From Heptranchias perlo (lineage: Eukaryota): a DNA stretch of 64,000 nucleotides. This document shows positions 608-46,249 of the stretch, piece after piece. Both the position numbers and the translations under genes were made by a program. The notes under the pieces are model-generated. The model saw only the letters and a list, made by a program, of their open reading frames with translations. It was not told where the DNA came from and did no database searches. Within the stretch, counting starts at the first letter, position 1. Each line of letters begins with the position of its first letter. The stretch spans positions 27,652,001-27,716,000 of the forward strand of contig NC_090352.1 in assembly GCF_035084215.1 (NCBI RefSeq), read 5' to 3'.

Positions 608-950
608 GTAAATGAAACTCCCCAATAGAAGAGCAGAAAAGAATTAAAATGCTGGAATTGCACAGCAAGTCAATCAGTAGCTGAAACATTGAAGTCTTCT
701 CCCTACTCATCGGATCTCGAGAATGGAACTTCGTGAAGGGGCAATTCCATAGAAAATGTCTCAAGTCGTGCCTTTAATCAGCCGCATTAAAACACCAGTC
801 TCTCTTGCTTTTTCAGCATTTAGCATATTTGGCAATTCAGAAGGGTACACCCAAAACATCATAATCTCTTTACAGGTGCTGGCTGGTCTGCTGTGTATTT
901 TCAATATTTTCTCTTTGTTTCAGTGAATATAATTCTGGATACTAGCTCAA

Positions 951-11802: not shown

Positions 11803-12579
11803 TCGCATTATGAGCATTGAAATCATAATCGATGCCCCTCTCACAATACAGTCCTGCTACGAGTGACAGTCCTGACTTCAGTGGCAATGCAATAATGTAG
11901 ATGAAGTGGCATTTCTGACTCTGGAGGTGGGGGGGGGGGATGGAAGAACAAGCTGAATTTTTACTGCTGCGGATGTGCTTAATGATATTCACATTACTGG
12001 CTTGTACAGATCATCCCCAACTATCAGGGAAGATCTAGTAAATAGAAATGAAAGTAGCCACAACTACAACCTACAGGTAACTGCAGATTGTGTATCCACA
12101 GTTTTTTTAGAGGCTGTTACCGCTGGTGCTGTGGAACCTGCTCCACAACGTAAATGAGCAGATTCCACAGCACCGAGAGCACCAGCATAATACAGTAGAA
12201 CAGTGATGTCTAAGAGGTGGCCCATTGGCTAAATATGGCTTGGGAATTTTGTCAATCTGGCCCTCAAAGTTCCTGCAGTTTCCCTTCTTTGTGCTTTAAG
12301 TGCAAAGTTGACTTTAGCACCGTTACAAGTTCGGGCCTGCCATAGATATCTTCTCAGGTTTCAGTGGCATCAGTCACTCCCATGAGCGGTCTGAGGGTCC
12401 TACTTTTATGGAGCTTGACTCACAATTCCCTATATCTACTTGCATGATAGGATAACCCAGGGGTTTAATAATAACACCCTCCGTGATCTGAACCAAATAT
12501 TCGTGTCTTGCACATGTGTACTTTGTCTCTGAAAGCAGACTGAGCAAACACTTGGTGAGACAAAGCCTGATACAAATTG

Positions 12580-12787: not shown

Positions 12788-12825
12788 TGTTGACTGACCA
12801 CCTCACAGCATTCTGTTTCAATCAC

Positions 12826-12985
12826 GATGTGGAGATGCCGGTGATGGACTGGGGTTGACAATTGTAAACAATTTTACAACACCAAGTTATAGTCCAGCAA
12901 TTTTATTTTAAATTTTATTTTAAATTCAGTGAATTTAAAATAAAATTGCTGGACTATAACTTGGTGTTGTAAAATTGTTTACAAA
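12826..12985. mobile_element. 160-bp fold-back Penelope-derived mini-insertion with 12-bp target-site duplication
   Basis: 12929-12984 is identical to 30425-30480; 12862-12914 is the perfect reverse complement of 12932-12984; TGTTTCAATCAC flanks at 12814-12825 and 12986-12997. Confidence 0.9.
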
Positions 12986-13574
12986 TGTTTCAATCACAGC
13001 ATCCTGTTTCAAAAAACCTCTGCTTGACTGCCTGCCTTTGTGTGTTCTCTTGCTGTTCATAGCCAGAAAACAAAGACCTGCCAGACCTCCTGCTGAGCAC
13101 CCAGGGCCAGCAACTCCCCAAAACAATGGACTTAAGGTTAAATTGCTAATTATTTACAGTCTGTGATGAAACAACATCAAAGCTAGCTCCTTAGCATTGT
13201 ATCTATCCATTATCTCAGACCCACTTTTAAAATCTTGAATATGCATTACCATTCTTTAAACAGTAACTCTTTTTCACAATCCTTTCTGTGGTAAAAAAAA
13301 TCCAAAAATGTGACAAGCTCCTTCTAGCTGTTTAAACTTCCTGGGCCTGGAGTACTGATAAAGGCTGCTCTCTGTTTGAAGGATTTCAATTCATCAGGGA
13401 GAGGCCGTGACCACTTTTCCGGAGCCGGCAGTTTTAAAGAGCTGCAGCATTCTTTTCCACTCCCCGTGCTGCTTTAGATCTCTCTCGCTACCCATGGCCA
13501 TAAAGGACACGTCTTTTTTAGTCTTTTATATCCTTGAAAATAATGGAATCGTCCTAAAGATGTGCTGTGATCTG

Positions 13575-15629: not shown

Positions 15630-16870
15630 TCTATGCTTCCAATTTCCACCCATTCTTCACCTTCACACGGTCTATCTCGGACTACTTCCTTCCCCTTCTG
15701 AACCTCGCTCTCTGGTGATGGGCTTTTCACTGAAATCTGTTACAAGCCCACTGACTCCCATAACTACCTGGAGTCCATTTCTTCTCACCCCATATCCTGT
15801 AAAGACTCCATCCCATTCTCCCGCTTTCTCCATCTCAGTCGTGAGTGCACTGTTACTGCTACCTTCGCACCAGGAATGTCCCTTTTTTCCTCAGCCGAGG
15901 ACTCCCCTCGACTGTGGTCAATGAAACCCTTTGCTGGGTCGGTCCCATTTACCATGCTTCTGCCCTGCACCCCCTCCCTCTCTTCTCACAACCTATCCCA
16001 GTACCCTCTGCATTCGCCAAATCATCTACCGCCATGTCCACTACCTACATGATCCCACCACCAAACATATTGTCTCCTTCCCTCCCCTTTCCGCTTTCCG
16101 GAGCGATCGTTCCCTCCCCAAACCCTGCTTCATTCTTGTAGCATCCCTACTTCCAGCTGCCTTTTCCCCACCACCTTCTCATGCAAGTGTAGGAGATGCA
16201 ACACCTGCCATTTCACCTCCTCCCAGGCCAAACACTCCTTCCATGTGAGACAACAATTTACGAGTACTTTCTCTAATCGAGCATGCTGTATTTGCTGCTC
16301 ATGGTGCAGCCTCCTCTACATTGGGGAAACCAAACGCAGATTAGGTGACCACTTTACTGAACACCTCCATCCAAGTGCGACCTTACGCTACCTGTGACTC
16401 GCCATTTTAAGTCCCACTCCCATTCCCACTCTGACTTCTATGCCATTGTTCCTATGAAGCTCAATGCAACCGTCTGATCTGAACATTAACTTCAGTAACT
16501 TCACCTTAACTATATCCTCATTTTCAATTTCATTTTTGACCCCTAGATTTTCCTTCTCTCCCATTTTCTCACATTTTCCCAGGACTTTAATGTCTTAATG
16601 TTTCTGTCCATTACTTGACTGAAGTTATGATCATTCATAATTGCTCTCTGGGTTTGTCTGATTTTTGACATATATATTTTTCCCTCCCCTTTTTCTGATT
16701 GCTTTAATATGACTGCCTGCCGCTTACATTTTAGTTCTGAACATGGCCTGCGCCTGAAACGTTAACTTGTCTGTTCTCTCCGCAGATGCTGTCTGACCTG
16801 TTGTGTGTTTCTAGCCTTTTCTGTTTTTGTTCAGATTTACAATAACTGGGGTATTGTGCTTTTTACTTTT
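15630..16870 (+). mobile_element. Decayed Penelope-like element (family B): RT C-terminus, GIY-YIG region and pLTR
   Basis: Homologous to the reverse complement of 35105-36230 (KPTDSH, SHP..CKDSIPFS, YIGETKR); ends with CTGAAACGTTAACT..CAGATGCTG-CTGACCTG. Confidence 0.8.
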
Positions 16871-20791: not shown

Positions 20792-20874
20792 AAAAGATTG
20801 AGGAAATTTGTGTTTTAGCACATTTGGTACATTTACGCCATTATTGCACTAAACGCAAGTTTCCTCAATCTTTT
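20792..20874. repeat. 83-bp imperfect hairpin (probable MITE remnant)
   Basis: AAAAGATTGAGGAAA (20792-20806) pairs perfectly with TTTCCTCAATCTTTT (20860-20874); imperfect pairing continues inward. Confidence 0.7.
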
Positions 20875-20940
20875 TATCAGTGCAGATCTTACATCCCTCA
20901 AAGCCTCTCAGGGATCATTTGCATAGCTGCAATGTTCAAG

Positions 20941-21040
20941 TCCAGTTCTGATGAAGGGTCTGCACCTGAAACATTAACCAGTCTTTTCTCTTTTCAGATC
21001 CTGTGCATTTCCAGCATTTTCTGTTTTCATTTTTATTTTT
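20941..21040 (+). mobile_element. Penelope family-B pLTR fragment with degenerate hammerhead core
   Basis: CAGTT-CTGATGA-AGGGT-CTGC-ACCT-GAAACATT-AAC, then TTTCCAGCATTTTCTGTTTT as at 36891-37030. Confidence 0.7.
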
Positions 21041-29625: not shown

Positions 29626-29792
29626 TCACATTTTATATTAATCAGGAAGTATAAAAAAGAATGTTATTTAAAGATGTTATGATTCATCATAGTGAGGGCT
29701 GTCACTTATGTAGTTCAACAGCTCTACTCACACTTGCTAAAACTCTATTGCATTCATAATGAATTGGGAGCAGGGTTGTGAATTGTTTTTTC

Positions 29793-30478
29793 GGTTCATA
29801 CTCCTGTGACTCGGCCAACGTTGTCTACCTCATATGTTGCAGGAAAGGATGCCCCAGAGCATGGTACATTGGCGAGACCATGCAGACGCTGCGACAACGG
29901 ATGAACGGACACCGTGCAACAATCGCCAAACAGGAGGGTTCCCTCCCAGTCGGGGAACACTTCAGCAGTCATGGACATTCATCCACCGACCTTCGGGTAA
30001 GCGTACTCCAAGGCGGCCTTCGAGACACACGACAACGCAAAATCGTCGAGCAGAAATTGATAGCCAAGTTCCGCACCCATGAGGACGGCCTCAACCGGGA
30101 TCTTGGGTTCATGTCACGCTACACGTTACCCCACCAGCGAACAAATGTTATCTGTTTTTAATATAATGGGTCATTTGCTGGCTTTCTCTGCCTTCCGGAT
30201 GTTTCTGCCTCTCTCTGTTTTTTTTCCTGTTTGTTTTTTTGTTGAATGTGTATTCGGGGGTTCTGCAGGTGACACCTCTCTGTCTGAACACGGTGATTGC
30301 CTTGGCAACGGGCAGTTGCAGGGGCATTCTGTAAACACCATGTATTGTTCTATATGTATAAATGCGTAGGCTTCAAGGAGCTCCTGAACATTTACCTGAG
30401 GAAGGAGGAAGTCTCCGAAAGCTTGTGAATTTAAAATAAAATTGCTGGACTATAACTTGGTGTTGTAAAATTGTTTAC
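29793..30478 (+). mobile_element. Young 5'-truncated Penelope-like element (family A): GIY-YIG endonuclease and pLTR, 12-bp TSD
   Basis: NVVYLICC..YIGETMQTLRQRMNGHR..PVGEHF..EQKLI..GLNRD with frame intact and CpGs retained; AATTGTTTTTTC at 29781-29792 and 30479-30490. Confidence 0.93.
30390..30430 (+). ncRNA. Minimal type I hammerhead ribozyme in the Penelope pLTR
   Basis: Stem I ATTTAC (30390-95) / GTGAAT (30425-30); CTGAGGA core (30396-402); stem II GGAG/CTCC; GAAA (30417-20); palindromic mini stem III AGCT; predicted cleavage after T30424. Confidence 0.8.
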
Positions 30479-30799
30479 AATTGTTTTTTCAATTACCTAA
30501 TCTGCACCACTCCCACCAATTTAGTTTGTAATAAAAAAATACATTCTTTTAAACAATACTCTTTTTAAGTATCTGTGGGTGTAGTTTATTTAGCAGCTTC
30601 CTCTTTGTCACTTAGATTTAGAGTTTGCTAGTTTGATGGTGATAGCATCACTTGGATTCTTTATTATTTCATTTTATTGTATCTCATTTATTGAGAAGTT
30701 CAAAATTTATACATGAAAAAGATTATCTATACAGCAGAGTGATCCCTAGTGTAGTGTTTCTTAAATTCTCCCTTTGACACTCTTCTCTCTTAAACTTCT

Positions 30800-34914: not shown

Positions 34915-37030
34915 CAATAAAAACTGAAAATGCTAGAAATACTCAGGTCAGGTAGCAACTGTAGAGAGAGAGAAAAAGAGTTAATGTGTCAGGTTAATGA
35001 CCTTAATTCTCTAACTTCTTCCAGTTCTGACTAAATAGTTTTTAAGCAAGTACAGAGCCAGGGAAAGGAGAGGAGGGAAGGTATGTGATAGAGTGGAGGA
35101 GTGATTAAATGGCAAAGGGATGATGGTGCAAGGCAAGGGGGGTTGGTAATGGGACAAGTAGAGAAACAAAAGATGGGTCTGGAGGAACTGTAAATGGCAA
35201 CAGCAGAAACATTATCAGCACCTGCTGTCCGAAAAAATGGGAGCAGTGGTTATGATCTGAAGTTATTGAAATCAATGTTGAGTCTGGAAGGTTGTAAAGT
35301 GCCCAATCAAAAGATGAGGTGCTGTTTCTCAAGCTTCCATTGAAACAGTGTAGGAGGCCGAGGTCAGAGTGGGATTGCGACGGAGAATTAAAATGGCAAG
35401 CGACTGGAAGCTCAGGGTCAAGCCTCCAGAGTGAATGGAGGTGTTCAGCAAAGAGTTCACCCAAGTTGCATTTGGTCTCCCTAATGTAGAGGAGACCACA
35501 TCGTGAGCAGTGATTACAATATACTAAATTGAAAGTACAACAAGTAAATCGGTTTCACCTGGAAGGAATGTGTGGGGTCTGGACGGTGGGAAGGGAGGAG
35601 GCAAAAGGGCAGGTGTTGCAACTCCTGTGCTTGCATGGGAAGGTGCCCTCGGAAGAAGATCGGGTGTTGGGGGTGATGGAAGAGTGGACCAGGGTGTCGC
35701 GGAGCAAACGGTCCCTTTGAAATGCTGAAAGGGGAGCGGAGGGGAATATATGTTTGGTGGTGGGATTGCACTGGAGGTGGCAGAAATGGCAGAGGATGAT
35801 CTGTTGAATGTGGAGGCTGGTGGATGGAAGGTGAGGATAAGGGGGACCCTATCGTGGTTCTGGGAGGGAGGGGTGAGGGCAGAAGTGCGGGAAATGGGAT
35901 GGACACGGTCGAGGGTCCTGTCAACCATAATGGAGCAAAATCCTTGGTTGAGGATAAAGGACCTATCGGAAGCACTGGTGTGGAAGGTGGTATCGTCAGA
36001 ATAGATGTGACGGAGACAGAGAAACTGGGAGAATGGAATAGAGTCCTTACAGGAAGTGAGGTGAGAGGAAGTGTAATCAAGTTGGCTGTGGGAGTCAGTG
36101 GGTTTATAGTAGATATTGGTTGACAGCCGATCTCCAGAAATGGAGATAGAGAAGTCGAGGAAGGGAAGAGTCCGAGATGGACCATGTGAAGTCGAGGGAG
36201 GGGTGGAAATTGGAAGCAAAGTTGATGAAATTTTCAGCTTGGGGCGAGAGCAGGAAGCAGCACAGATACAGCCTTCAATGTAAAAAAGAGGTGAGGGAGG
36301 GGACCTGAGTGGGACTGGAACAAGAAATGTTCCACTTAGCCCACGAAAAGGCAGGCATAGCTCGGACCCATACAGGTTCCCATAGCAACACCTTTTATTT
36401 GGAGAAAGTGAGTGGAGTCAAAGGAGAAGTTGTTCAATGTAAGAACAAGTGCCGCCAGGCGGAGGAGGGTGGTGGTGGTGGATGGGGACTGGTTGGGCCT
36501 CCATTCAGGGAAGAAGCGGAGGACTAGCAGGCTGTCCTGGTGGGGGACGGAAACTCGAGGAACAGCACCTCATCTTTCAGTTAGGCACTTTACAACCTTC
36601 CGGCCTTGACATTGATTTCAGTAACTTCAGATCATAACCACTGCTCCCACTTTTTCAGACAGCATGTGTTGGTAACGGTTCTGCTGTTGCCATTTACAGC
36701 CCATCTTTTGTTTCTTTACTTGTCCCATTACCGCCCCTTTTTGCCTTGCACCATCATCCCTTTTGTTTTTTAAATCACTCCTGCCCTCCACCCTATCATA
36801 GACCTTCCCTTTTGTTCTTTCCTCCCTTTCTTCTCTCCCCCTTCCCCTGGCTCTGTACTTGCTTGAAAACTGTTAATTCTCTAACTTCTTCCAGTTCTGA
36901 TGAAAGGTCATCAACCTGACACATTAACTCCATTTCTCTCTCCACATATGCTGCCTGACCTGCTGAGTATTTCCAGCATTTTCTGTTTTTATTTCAGATT
37001 TCCAGCATCCGCAGTATTTTGCTTTTGTTT
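34915..37030 (-). mobile_element. Penelope-like element (family B) with inverted pLTR: minus-strand body 34915-36545 plus inverted copy of its 3' end at 36551-37030
   Basis: LPFLDFSISISGDRLSTNIYYKPTDSHSQLDYTSSH..CKDSIPFSQF; EHL..LPVACHFN; 36551-37030 is reverse-complementary to 34915-35330. Confidence 0.9.
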
Positions 37031-37509
37031 TAGCGATATGCCTCAATTTGATCAGAGCAGCACTAGTAGAAATGGTGCTAGGATCAACTTGAGATGATGA
37101 ATTAAAAGACATTGAAACATACTGGTATCAATACACTAAACATATCTAGTGACAACACTGTGAAGAAATCTGAAGGCAAATATCATCATTTACTTAATTT
37201 TTTTCATTTGAAACATTACCAGTCTGTTTTTCTGTTCTGATTCAGCCTAGTCTCCAAATTGCCCATGTTATAAATTTAGCTGCTCTTGTGCATCCCACAG
37301 CATTTTTGTTTGAGATGGCTCATGTGCAATGAGAACAGAAGATAACTTGGCCTTGTAAAAACAAGCAGGATATTATCCAGTCACTTTGATAACCTACACA
37401 ATCATTAAATGAAGCCAAGCCCGATCCTGTTCTCAGTTGATGTCCATAAATACCTAGTTTCCAGAACAGGGTAATTGATTTTTCCCTCCTTTGGGACAAT
37501 GAGACACCC

Positions 37510-39044: not shown

Positions 39045-39221
39045 GGGGGTAATTTTCTCCTTCATCGCGTGGACAGTAAACTGGAGTAGCAGATCACCCG
39101 CCCGTTATAGAATCTGTCTGATTTTCATTTCCATTGAAATTAATATTGGGCGGATTTTATAGCAGGTGGACGATCCACTCTGCCAGTTTACCGCCCAAGC
39201 AGTGAAAGTGAAAATGACCCG
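39045..39221. mobile_element. Palindromic MITE (non-autonomous DNA transposon, possibly PIF/Harbinger-derived)
   Basis: Termini GGGGTAATTTTC..GAAAATGACCC, imperfect inverted arms over the whole length, centre TTTCCATTGAA. Confidence 0.65.
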
Positions 39222-41342: not shown

Positions 41343-41906
41343 TATTCAAGAGATTTTTTAACCGGCAAAGATCATAAACAAGATGAAAAAGAAACTTTTA
41401 GTCCTTGGCAGCAATACTCAAATGTAAAACAGATCAACAAGAATGGAATTATTAGATCCAGTTTGTACATATAAGTAAAAATAGTTCTATTAAGATACAG
41501 ATTAGCTGTTGGTATGCCTATTGAATAAAATTCTAATGAACTGTGAAAATATTTTACAACTTAAAAATAAAATGTTACATTTTATGCGACATAGGATAGA
41601 GGTAAATGACTACAAAAATATAACACTGGACAATTTTAAAGTTATGCAAGAGCTTTGCAAAAGATTTGGAGGCAACAGTATTTTTTTACTAGTATACTTA
41701 TACTGTATATAAAAACATGTTCATTTGTATATACTGTACTAATCATTAAAACAACAAAGTATTTTGTATCATACATCATTGCAGTTAACCCCAGCCACTT
41801 GCTGGTGTAAACATTAAGTTTTGCAGATTCAAAATTAAAACTGAAAATGCTGGAAATACAAATTAGCATCTGATTAAAGACTTGGAGGGGGGGGGGGGGG
41901 CGGGCG

Positions 41907-42091
41907 GAGGGTAATTTTAACTTTACGTGATGGCGTAAAATGGGGGATAGCAAATTATCAGCCCATTAAACATCACGCCCAATTTTGCTTTCCATTGAAG
42001 TCAATGGAAGGAAAGATTGGGCGGGGCCTATAACGAACGGCCAATTTGATATACCCCATGTTACATCATCACCCAAAGTTAAAATTAGTCC
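41907..42091. mobile_element. Palindromic MITE related to 39045-39221
   Basis: GGGTAATTTTAACTTT..AAAGTTAAAATTAGTCC termini; central palindrome TTCCATTGAAGTCAATGGAA. Confidence 0.7.
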
Positions 42092-42389
42092 TAGGTAAAT
42101 TTTTGGGTTCAAACTTTTTAATCAGAACTAGTGAAGAGACATCAGAAATGTTAACTTGTCTTTCTGCTTTCACCTGCTGTGTATACTCAGAATGTTTTGT
42201 TTTTATTTCAAATTTCAACATTTCCAGTTTTTCCCTTATACCCTTATTTGTTATAGGTTTTCTGGATATCAGGACATATTTTTGCAGACCCTGGTCTTTT
42301 GGGTTTTCCCTTTGGAAAAAAAAACAGGTAATCACCCTGAAACTGCATGGAGGGATGATCTTTGACTTCAGCAAAGTACAACAGTATGA

Positions 42390-44330: not shown

Positions 44331-46249
44331 TGCTGACTAAGGAGGTAAGGAGATATATTTTACAATTCTCCTTAGTGCAGCACAATGTCAAACATTATTT
44401 GACCTAATATGGCTAAAGTTTATAGCAGTCAATGTATATGATTTCCAAAAAGCTGTAGTTACATATGAACACAAAAGTTATTCAGAATATTGATAATTCT
44501 TTAATGATTATGGGCAATGGTATATAGATTTGTAGTTTGCTTTTTTTTTAAAAAAAGTAATTTAATAAAAAAAGTATTTATTTTCCAAATACAAGAACTG
44601 CCTGGGCTTTGATTCCACCTGCACTCATTAACTTGGCAATTCCTGGAAAGAAATGTAATTTGAGCAAGTGTGTCTCATATCTTTACACTTTATTGAAACA
44701 ATTGTTAAACATTTCCTATCAACATACCTGATCTTGAGTCAGTTGTATAAACCAAGGAGTAAATCCATGTATTATGAAGCCTCTTAACTAAAATATTGAG
44801 CCTTCATTTCTAAACCATTAATACTAGTTACTCAATTGGAGCCATTTAATTCACAGCTAGGTTACTTTACAAAAAAAACTTTCCCCCAGTTCCTGGTAGA
44901 AAAACTAAGCTGGGGACCTGAAAACTGACCCTGCTCATCTACCAAAGCCACTTTGCAACCAATAATGTAGCAGGGAATGGCCAAGTATCATTCATCCTCA
45001 GAGATGTTCAACTTTTGACAGAAAACAGCTGTAATTTGTTACAAGATATCTATTATTCATTCCTACGTGAAGCATGAATCCTAAACCAATCCTGCCATCC
45101 AGCTTATAAAGAGAGAAAACATTTAAAAGTATCTTATAATTTTTGAATTTGGGGATTGTCACAAGTCTGTACTCATCTCTTAAGTAAAGGAGAATACATA
45201 ATTGGAAAGATTTCTGTAATTGGCTTGGCCAGAAGATGAAGCACATGGCAGAGGTTCAAAAATATTATTCTCTTCTGTAAAGGTCCCAAGTGAAATGAGT
45301 TTGGACAGTCTCAATTCAGTTGCTACTTGGCATGGACACAGTACAAAACTATCCTGATAGGATTTCTGGCATGGGAAATAGAAAAAAAATGTCAAATTGG
45401 TGCAGGAGTTAATCCTCTGAGATTAGGGTTGAGTAGCATAACTGCAGCAGAGTAGAAGCTTTGCTGTGCATCCACCCATTGTAGTATACCCAGCTTTAAT
45501 GCTGATGATAGGTGTCTGAAATGGAAAGTATTTCATTCTCTGGTGCTAAAATCCTTCACCTTGTTCAGCACAAAATTCACACACAAAAAAATTCATATGA
45601 AAATTTCTATCCAAAGTTGAGTAGTTGCAGGAAGTCAATTTTAGTTTGTTTTACTATATCTGCAAGCATGCATATCCATTATTATTGTATACAGAAGTTA
45701 CTATCAAGTTTGGATTTTACTATAACCCACGTTGTAACTACTGAAACATTGGGACAAGGCCTCGAGCCCTACATTTTCCAAAAGATGGCCGCCAAACACT
45801 ATAAACCACCTCCTATAAAATGCAGTGTGAAAATCCAGCATCTAAGGAAAGACGACAAATCTCATATTTGTAAACTAAAAATAAAGAATCTTTAAATTAA
45901 AAAAGTCTCCAAAAACAGTATATTGCTAAAAAATTACTAAAAGTCAAATACACAAATTCTTTTATGTACCTTCTAGTTTAATTTTTTATTAAATTTATCT
46001 CATCTCCAAAGATGATTCAATTAATACTTTCTTCATTAATTGGGATAACTGAAAATTGGTTACCAACTTTTAAAAAAAAAGTTCAGAATATTCTTAATCA
46101 ATTCAACCTCTATTAGTGATTTCAGGGAAGTTACATTTATATCAAATCACGTCCTGTATGAAATGGTATTTAGATTCCTATATTGTAAAAAAGTATTCAC
46201 ACAATTTAACATGGCAACCATCTGAAACAACAGTTAAATAAGCAAAAAA

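Follow-up and report, generated by a model that had tools for sequence, protein, structure and literature searches.

The 64-kb window analysed here (the whole stretch of DNA under study) carries a 160-bp insertion that folds back on itself into a near-perfect hairpin, both arms of which match the end of a Penelope-like element (PLE). The question it raises is how the apex of this hairpin came to lie within a base of the bond that the hammerhead ribozyme of the element is predicted to cleave. The surroundings are AT-rich, repeat-filled vertebrate DNA with LINE-like RT fragments and with ORFs that resemble an armadillo-repeat protein and an alpha/beta hydrolase; the labels that we attach to these ORFs and repeats (CR1, ABHD15-like and TAOK-like) are presumptive.

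Structure of the fold-back insertion and its source family

The insert (12826-12985) is bounded by exact 12-bp direct repeats, TGTTTCAATCAC, at 12814-12825 and 12986-12997 of the forward strand, which form the left and right target-site duplications. These repeats cannot be extended at either side, and they are the sole exact 12-mer direct repeat with a spacing of 150-200 nt in the 64-kb window. The longest perfect stem is 53 bp, with 12862-12914 pairing with 12932-12984, and the hairpin has a predicted energy of -60.5 kcal/mol (z -15.8), as good a value being reached by none of 200 shuffles. The right, direct arm (12929-12985, forward strand) starts exactly at the first base past the predicted cut: 12929-12984 is identical to 30425-30480 of a sibling PLE copy in the same window (56/56 nt), the identity has zero leftward extension beyond G30425, and when the comparison is continued to 30484 there is one mismatch in 60 nt (base 12985), followed by a TGT that overlaps the target duplication. 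The left, inverted arm (12858-12928, minus strand) is a copy of 30426-30484 and starts at T30426, 1 nt 3′ of the first base past the cut; its reverse complement matches the sibling only after setting aside a 12-nt tandem duplication beside the apex (12899-12926, unit AATTTTATTTTA, 2.3 copies with a period of 12 by repeat analysis). An earlier note on this DNA had described the 160-bp insert with its 12-bp repeats, 53-bp stem and 12-bp slip duplication, and sequence comparison reproduced all of these; its account of the two arms, the right one identical from G30425 and the left one 1 nt short, was confirmed as well. The slip duplication lies at most 3 nt from the inferred template end and has AATT motifs at its bounds. 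It is what would be expected of telomerase-like realignment at a template end, and later ordinary slippage fits equally well.

Outside its match to the sibling, the inverted arm alone continues for another 32 nt (12826-12857, minus strand), which, judged by peptide homology, are the true tail of the element, the outer end marking the putative distal RT start (+92 from the cut). In P0013, a catshark (Scyliorhinus torazame) gene model, a single translated run takes in the hammerhead region together with the pLTR end and the tail; the tail peptide reads PSPTPASPH in P0013 and PSPSPASPH when translated from the left arm, the homology ending at the same place. The earlier note was thus right in taking the extra nucleotides for element sequence; its count of 36 nt is the excess over the perfect match of the right arm, and against the 30-kb copy the count is 32 nt. 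The pLTR end is translated in no protein but P0013 among the 242 checked, the P0013 stretch used as a query recovered itself alone among 9 candidates, and among 128 ORF N-termini only that of the query was preceded by the tail.

When the insert is excised in silico, both flanks follow the order of an old dispersed repeat near 19 kb that is paralogous to them, the alignment being gapped at the site itself. An assembly artefact is unlikely, since the duplication is exact, the flanks are colinear and the tail is one-sided and missing from the sibling. The open stretch across the fold-back junction spans 34 codons only. The target sits in an imperfect 19-bp tandem duplication (12804-12822 and 12995-13013), and three occurrences of TGTTTCAA lie around the insertion.

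The sibling copy (29793-30478, 686 bp) is 5′-truncated and lies between exact 12-bp target-site duplications of its own, AATTGTTTTTTC, on the forward strand at 29781-29792 and 30479-30490; these are absent from the earlier note. It extends to 30484 when six bases shared with the target are counted. Its forward strand comprises the 3′ end of the PLE ORF, encoding a GIY-YIG endonuclease (29793-30161; Pfam GIY-YIG, E 3.7e-4, just short of the cut-off), and the pLTR end that is copied in both fold-back arms (30425-30484), whose last six nucleotides, AATTGT, are common to the target duplication and which carries no tail. Since the tail is missing from it, the 30-kb copy is ruled out as the template of the fold-back. 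The 3′ end of the sibling and that of the right arm fall at the same site, and the two duplications are of equal length (12 bp). In each of the young insertions, the direct 3′ end of the element has bases in common with the target (six in the sibling and three in the fold-back), and both targets read TGTTT with CAAT close behind.

The endonuclease fragment (29796-30158) has 43 relatives among 87 candidates, the best three being Heptranchias perlo gene models with 99, 92 and 94% identity, followed by relatives from catshark, smooth-hound and bamboo shark. The source family counts 54 members in one cluster, and is young and abundant in the shark host. One protein that is 92% identical to the endonuclease end of the sibling (P0002) combines an RT domain (PF00078), a linker and GIY-YIG; the linker, which lies outside the truncated window copy, contains CHSNLCKTC (CxxxxCxxC), and its residues C505, C510 and C513 are nearly invariant in an alignment of 48 Neptune RT proteins. 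The Neptune clade is defined by a Cys-rich CX2-5CxxC linker between RT and EN (Craig 2021, PMC8557442; Arkhipova 2013, PMC3846280), a pattern that the P0002 linker fits. By its domains and linker, the source family is assigned to EN+ Penelope-like elements of Neptune layout. Many shark RefSeq gene models (P0001, P0013, P0017, P0030 and P0039-P0041) contain exonised pieces of the source PLE joined to genes of the host (among them XRCC5 and septin 5a), and these fusions are probably annotation artefacts or rare isoforms.

The predicted cut and the ends of the arms

A descriptor scan together with the conserved core identified a minimal type I hammerhead at 30390-30430 of the forward strand. It is composed of stem I (30390-95/30425-30), the core CTGAGGA (30396-402), an unpaired A30403, stem II (30404-08/30412-16), GAAA (30417-20) and a self-complementary AGCT stem III. 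Two matches to the descriptor occur in the window, against zero in every one of 20 shuffles, and the stronger match, with 6 bp in stem I and 5 bp in stem II, has 30425 as the first base past the cut. The weaker one (45502-45534), with stems of 3 and 4 bp and outside any recognised PLE, probably arose by chance. Conserved hammerhead numbering, as we take it, puts the cut after N17, that is at 30424|30425, and this is the predicted cleavage bond, help from a dimer or a protein being presumed. The earlier note had arrived at the same bond from the fold, independently of the insertion; the conserved core agrees with it, and both arms start at most 1 nt away. The monomer fold is unremarkable by energy (z 0.35), and Rfam has no hammerhead family match at 30390-30430. 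Both results are expected of a ribozyme that acts as a dimer, as minimal PLE hammerheads do according to the review literature. In vitro, cleavage by these hammerheads is inefficient (Cervera and de la Pena 2014, PMC4209133).

Measured from the cut, whose position the conserved core sets independently, the apex lies at +1 on the right arm and at +2 on the left. Under uniform truncation, the chance of landing at most 1 nt from the cut would be 0.4-5%, for ranges of 692 down to 60 nt. A self-complementary hexamer, AAGCTT (30419-30424), stands directly 5′ of the cut with its centre 3 nt from it, and other palindromes nearby are centred at 30381 (half-length 5) and 30433 (half-length 3). At the fold-back junction nothing of AAGCTT is left and there is no overlap, which is what run-off would be expected to produce.

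The 3′ ends of the arms lie +56 to +60 (right) and +92 (left) from the cut. In a predicted fold, the 92-nt segment 3′ of the cut forms a long stem-loop with the proximal start site in its terminal hairpin. Reverse transcription of an anole PLE begins at two internal start sites that bound the tail (Frangieh 2024, PMC11167929). Since PLE RT starts internally in this way, the 3′ ends of the arms are best read as priming sites on a longer RNA, and the cleavage-product RNA of about 90 nt that the earlier note had postulated becomes unnecessary: the lengths of 60 and 92 nt correspond to internal priming.

Origin of the fold-back and rival explanations

Probably, though with a good deal of room for other readings, both target strands primed cDNA synthesis at two internal sites on a self-cleaved PLE RNA, and both syntheses ran off its 5′ end; this strength and those given to the rivals below are judgements, not computed values. 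Hammerhead cleavage is the simplest account of the apex, and the best explanation of the fold-back is a dead-on-arrival, extremely short insertion from a single integration event of a young Neptune-clade PLE. The PLE protein would have nicked both target strands 12 nt apart, as the observed duplication suggests and as two-strand nicking by the anole PLE makes plausible. Each target 3′ end would then have primed cDNA inside the PLE RNA, one at the distal site (the tail end, +92) and the other at the proximal one (between about +56 and +60) with the aid of the 3-nt microhomology, following the two-site model of Frangieh 2024. Had the RNA already been self-cleaved at 30424|30425, synthesis would have run off the 5′ end after 60 and 92 nt, and the two cDNA ends would have been joined head-to-head with the loss of one base, via a template jump or end joining; another option is that one of the arms served as the template for the other. 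AATT-AATT slippage would have produced the 12-nt duplication, either while the enzyme was held up close to the end of the template or at a later time. In the anole PLE, the protein cuts both strands in vitro and extends them, is a predicted dimer and activates its own hammerhead (Frangieh 2024, PMC11167929). As a precedent, ribozyme cleavage shapes the genomic 5′ junctions of R2 (Eickbush 2013, PMC3774820), in which direct joins with little microhomology are common (Palm 2024).

Of the head-to-head double copying of a cleaved RNA proposed in the earlier note, the cleavage stands as the simplest explanation of the apex, whereas the layout with its one-sided tail is ordinary PLE anatomy. Known PLE anatomy in fact accounts for layout, tail and duplication, and leaves over the position of the apex. 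The fold-back is a single insertion, selected after the fact, and its apex is symmetric, so the two arms may amount to one observation (if either arm is a copy of the other, or if the apex underwent later trimming). The start sites lie just 60-90 nt 3′ of the cut. It follows that priming in a cleaved pLTR would abort the copy and that long copies such as the sibling would derive from RNA with an uncut ribozyme, which agrees with the comment that clades devoid of the hammerhead proliferate no less well (Craig 2021, PMC8557442).

Other copies bear on how general cleavage might be. Both the sibling and the catshark model P0013 read through the ribozyme, and in a second, older PLE family in the window none of nine arms starts at the presumed cut, the starts lying at -377, -64, -37, -35, -34, -34, -12, +34 and +40 (from local alignments, the boundaries being old and approximate). 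The degenerate hammerhead of this family was placed by eye at 36897, with 36926 as the presumed first base past the cut. As a general rule, the claim that self-cleavage defines the template's 5′ end therefore does not hold. With the anole PLE in vitro, cleavage was dispensable, unprocessed RNA was the dominant template, and RNA-seq ends at the cut were absent from the data as described in the accessible part of the paper (Frangieh 2024, PMC11167929). None of the literature searched describes a PLE insertion or an inversion apex that falls at a hammerhead cut; Fig. S2 of Frangieh 2024, on genomic copy coverage, may bear on the matter.

The older family shows the classic head-to-head arrangement, with a copy from 34916 to about 36548 on the minus strand set against an inverted piece with a tail at 36549-37033. 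No target duplication of at least 7 bp was present around it in the ranges searched, and within the direct copy a small inversion runs through the hammerhead near 35003-35030. Four of the older-family alignments have their starts 34-37 nt upstream of the presumed cut and immediately 5′ of the hammerhead, a position that may be due to conservation of the motif or to a second preferred boundary. Fragments of the pLTR end of this family also occur as head-to-head pairs at 641-719 (minus) and 849-922 (plus) and at 41823-41860 (minus) and 42123-42234 (plus), and further short old ones lie at 16732-16863 and 20940-21032.

As a proxy set, the Neptune RT alignment (48 proteins) led to 43 loci on apparently eukaryotic contigs within bacterial MAGs. 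The 12 hammerhead matches in eight of these loci (six distinct sequences) included no cut-centred inverted repeat and no copy starting at the cut, a comparison of low power because the loci were picked by ORF. In an invertebrate-type PLE represented by two of them (L004/L005), the ORF-bearing copy shares with the hammerhead-bearing pLTR only +61 to +101, a 40-nt repeat whose geometry relative to the cut is the same as that of the fold-back. Four loci (L004, L005, L015 and L017) lie on one 2.77-Mb contig, and L021-L042 come mostly from one assembly. Several species-representative bacterial MAGs include contigs that bear minimal hammerheads and microsatellites alongside Penelope-like RT genes and that look like contamination from animal hosts. 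In L012 and L013 (2074-9937), PLE-like units form a tandem array of about 3.9 kb, every unit carrying a hammerhead with a second long ORF immediately behind it.

The rival that survives best, an improbable one in our judgement, dispenses with cleavage: cDNAs of uncut RNA would anneal or self-prime at AAGCTT, giving a palindrome-guided inversion, and the perfect palindrome would later lose 7 nt at its tip. The hexamer is suitably placed, centred 3 nt from the cut, a nearly symmetric 7-nt tip loss reproduces the junction, and palindromes are prone to small central deletions and have unstable tips. Palindromes are moreover abundant at inverted PLE junctions, where they have been read as traces of self-priming (Arkhipova 2013, PMC3846280). 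This route, however, requires two steps as well as a deletion that stops exactly at +1, it leaves the larger or equal palindromes at 30381 and 30433 unused, and the hexamer itself left no trace.

Another possibility, which we place just behind and likewise regard as improbable, is that the fold-back is an ordinary, very short 5′-truncated PLE insertion whose symmetric apex, formed by snap-back or end joining, fell at the cut by chance. PLE copies are heavily 5′-truncated and an inverted piece is frequent (Craig 2021; Arkhipova 2013; curation guide), R2 forms snap-back junctions at low frequency (Palm 2024), about ten other PLE arms lie in the window from which this case was picked post hoc, and a symmetric apex would need a single event for two arms. 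Yet landing at most 1 nt from the cut has the probability of about 0.4-5% per junction given above, and no other short copy in the window is both young and sharply bounded.

It is still harder to credit that RT stopped on uncut RNA at a folded or protein-bound hammerhead core behind stem I and so mimicked cleavage. Stem III of a dimeric ribozyme would end 1-2 nt 5′ of G30425, and protein contacts are plausible given that the anole ribozyme is protein-assisted (Frangieh 2024); but the stronger barrier, stem II, would halt synthesis near 30416-30417, and the sibling and P0013 read through. Least credible of all is that the fold-back belongs to a non-autonomous family that propagates itself, a retro-MITE which the PLE protein would move as one unit: in rotifers, pLTR sequences are enough for mobilisation in trans (Arkhipova 2013, PMC3846280) and retrozymes have been proposed as non-autonomous PLE derivatives (Li 2026, bioRxiv 10.64898/2026.07.22.740005), but the fold-back has neither ribozyme nor upstream pLTR, a near-perfect hairpin transcript would bury the priming region, apart from the slip the arms depart from the long copy at just 1 of 60 nt, as fresh synthesis predicts, and the window holds no second copy.

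The family of fold-back retroelements suggested in the earlier note accordingly found no second member: in the 64-kb window self-BLAST and nhmmer returned the two arms and the sibling alone, and an exact-pattern scan of bacterial and archaeal assemblies gave no hit. Four other fold-backs in the window (41912-42087, 39047-39220, 12125-12174 and 20792-20874) were rejected as relatives, as they match neither PLE family and have no long duplication. The first two are old, with arms of 85-87 nt that are 76% and 71% complementary and with similar GGTAATTTT ends, and are probably MITE-like; the one at 41912-42087 lies between the arms of a head-to-head PLE fragment pair. Being devoid of ribozyme and upstream pLTR and self-folding, hairpins similar to the PLE fold-back, if any, are more likely to be made afresh each time.

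Implications and relation to known elements

Run-off synthesis on a cleaved RNA, the reading that we prefer, leads to a conjecture that we advance tentatively and believe rather less than we doubt it, namely that sharks hold recurrent fold-backs of 150-170 bp together with single-arm equivalents, every one of them newly made from PLE RNA cut by the hammerhead, with breakpoints piled at the scissile bond. If this is true, recurrent fold-backs would be a genomic record of PLE ribozyme cleavage in vivo. The ribozyme would then abort copies primed in a cleaved pLTR, and would be a brake or quality gate, not a processing aid, and both arms of PLE inversions would come from two-strand priming at two internal starts. 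Regarding the role of hammerheads in PLEs, the fold-back suggests that an answer could be read from DNA, via breakpoint counts in a high-copy young family, and it would represent a minimal clean fossil of PLE integration, with two nicks, two start sites and one junction. If such hairpins are common, they may be misannotated as MITEs or miRNA precursors, and they may feed small-RNA silencing of the element.

With MITEs and miRNA hairpins the fold-back has in common the short near-perfect hairpin and, with the former, the target duplication. It is rejected as a MITE, as its arms are PLE pLTR with no DNA-transposon link and its left terminus is an asymmetric tail with 32-36 nt unpaired, and as an miRNA precursor, since all 12 Rfam matches were under their gathering scores (the best, MIR8675, at 60 bits against 90.8). 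Non-LTR retrozymes are likewise short, non-coding, related to PLE pLTRs and found in cartilaginous fish (Cervera 2020, PMC7229834; Li 2026, bioRxiv 10.64898/2026.07.22.740005); as described in the available parts of these reports, however, they are head-to-tail with a ribozyme per unit, whereas the fold-back is head-to-head with no hammerhead inside 12814-12997, and it is not counted among them. In R2 elements with HDV-like ribozymes, self-cleavage sets the template's 5′ end and can be read in genomic junctions (Eickbush 2013, PMC3774820), although both the ribozyme and the element class differ.

The hammerhead at 30390-30430 matches the minimal metazoan PLE hammerheads of Cervera and de la Pena (2014, PMC4209133) in its core, the unpaired base before stem II and the G10.1-C11.1 pair, and also in the palindromic 15.2-16.2 positions and the location in the pLTR. 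Their model leads from unit-length or circular RNA to head-to-tail tandems, while the fold-back is apparently a short head-to-head dead end. The Poseidon PLE PAc of Anolis carolinensis (Frangieh 2024, PMC11167929) resembles the fold-back in that both strands are nicked and extended from two internal starts bounding the tail, that the hammerhead lies about 85-92 nt upstream of the start region, and that targets are AT-rich. PAc differs in that cleavage was found dispensable and no RNA ends were seen at the cut; the family of the fold-back, unlike PAc, is of Neptune type. Priming by PAc in vitro is homology-free, whereas the two direct arms in the window show 3 and 6 nt of target microhomology.

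The closest likeness is to canonical EN+ PLE insertions (Arkhipova 2013, PMC3846280; Craig 2021, PMC8557442; Schostak 2008, PMC2377424), with which the fold-back shares the head-to-head inverted, 5′-truncated piece, a one-sided tail (32 nt, against 30-40 nt), a target duplication (12 bp, against 8-10 bp in rotifers) and a palindrome at the junction. Unlike these, it is pared down to 60 and 92 nt 3′ of the hammerhead, contains neither ORF nor ribozyme and has its apex at the predicted cut. The accessible parts of the three papers draw no connection between junctions and the cut site, those of 2008 and 2013 being older than the discovery of the ribozyme. The fold-back is therefore one case within known PLE architecture and plausible single evidence for ribozyme action in vivo, and what is new in it relative to known PLE insertions is an apex at the predicted hammerhead cut.
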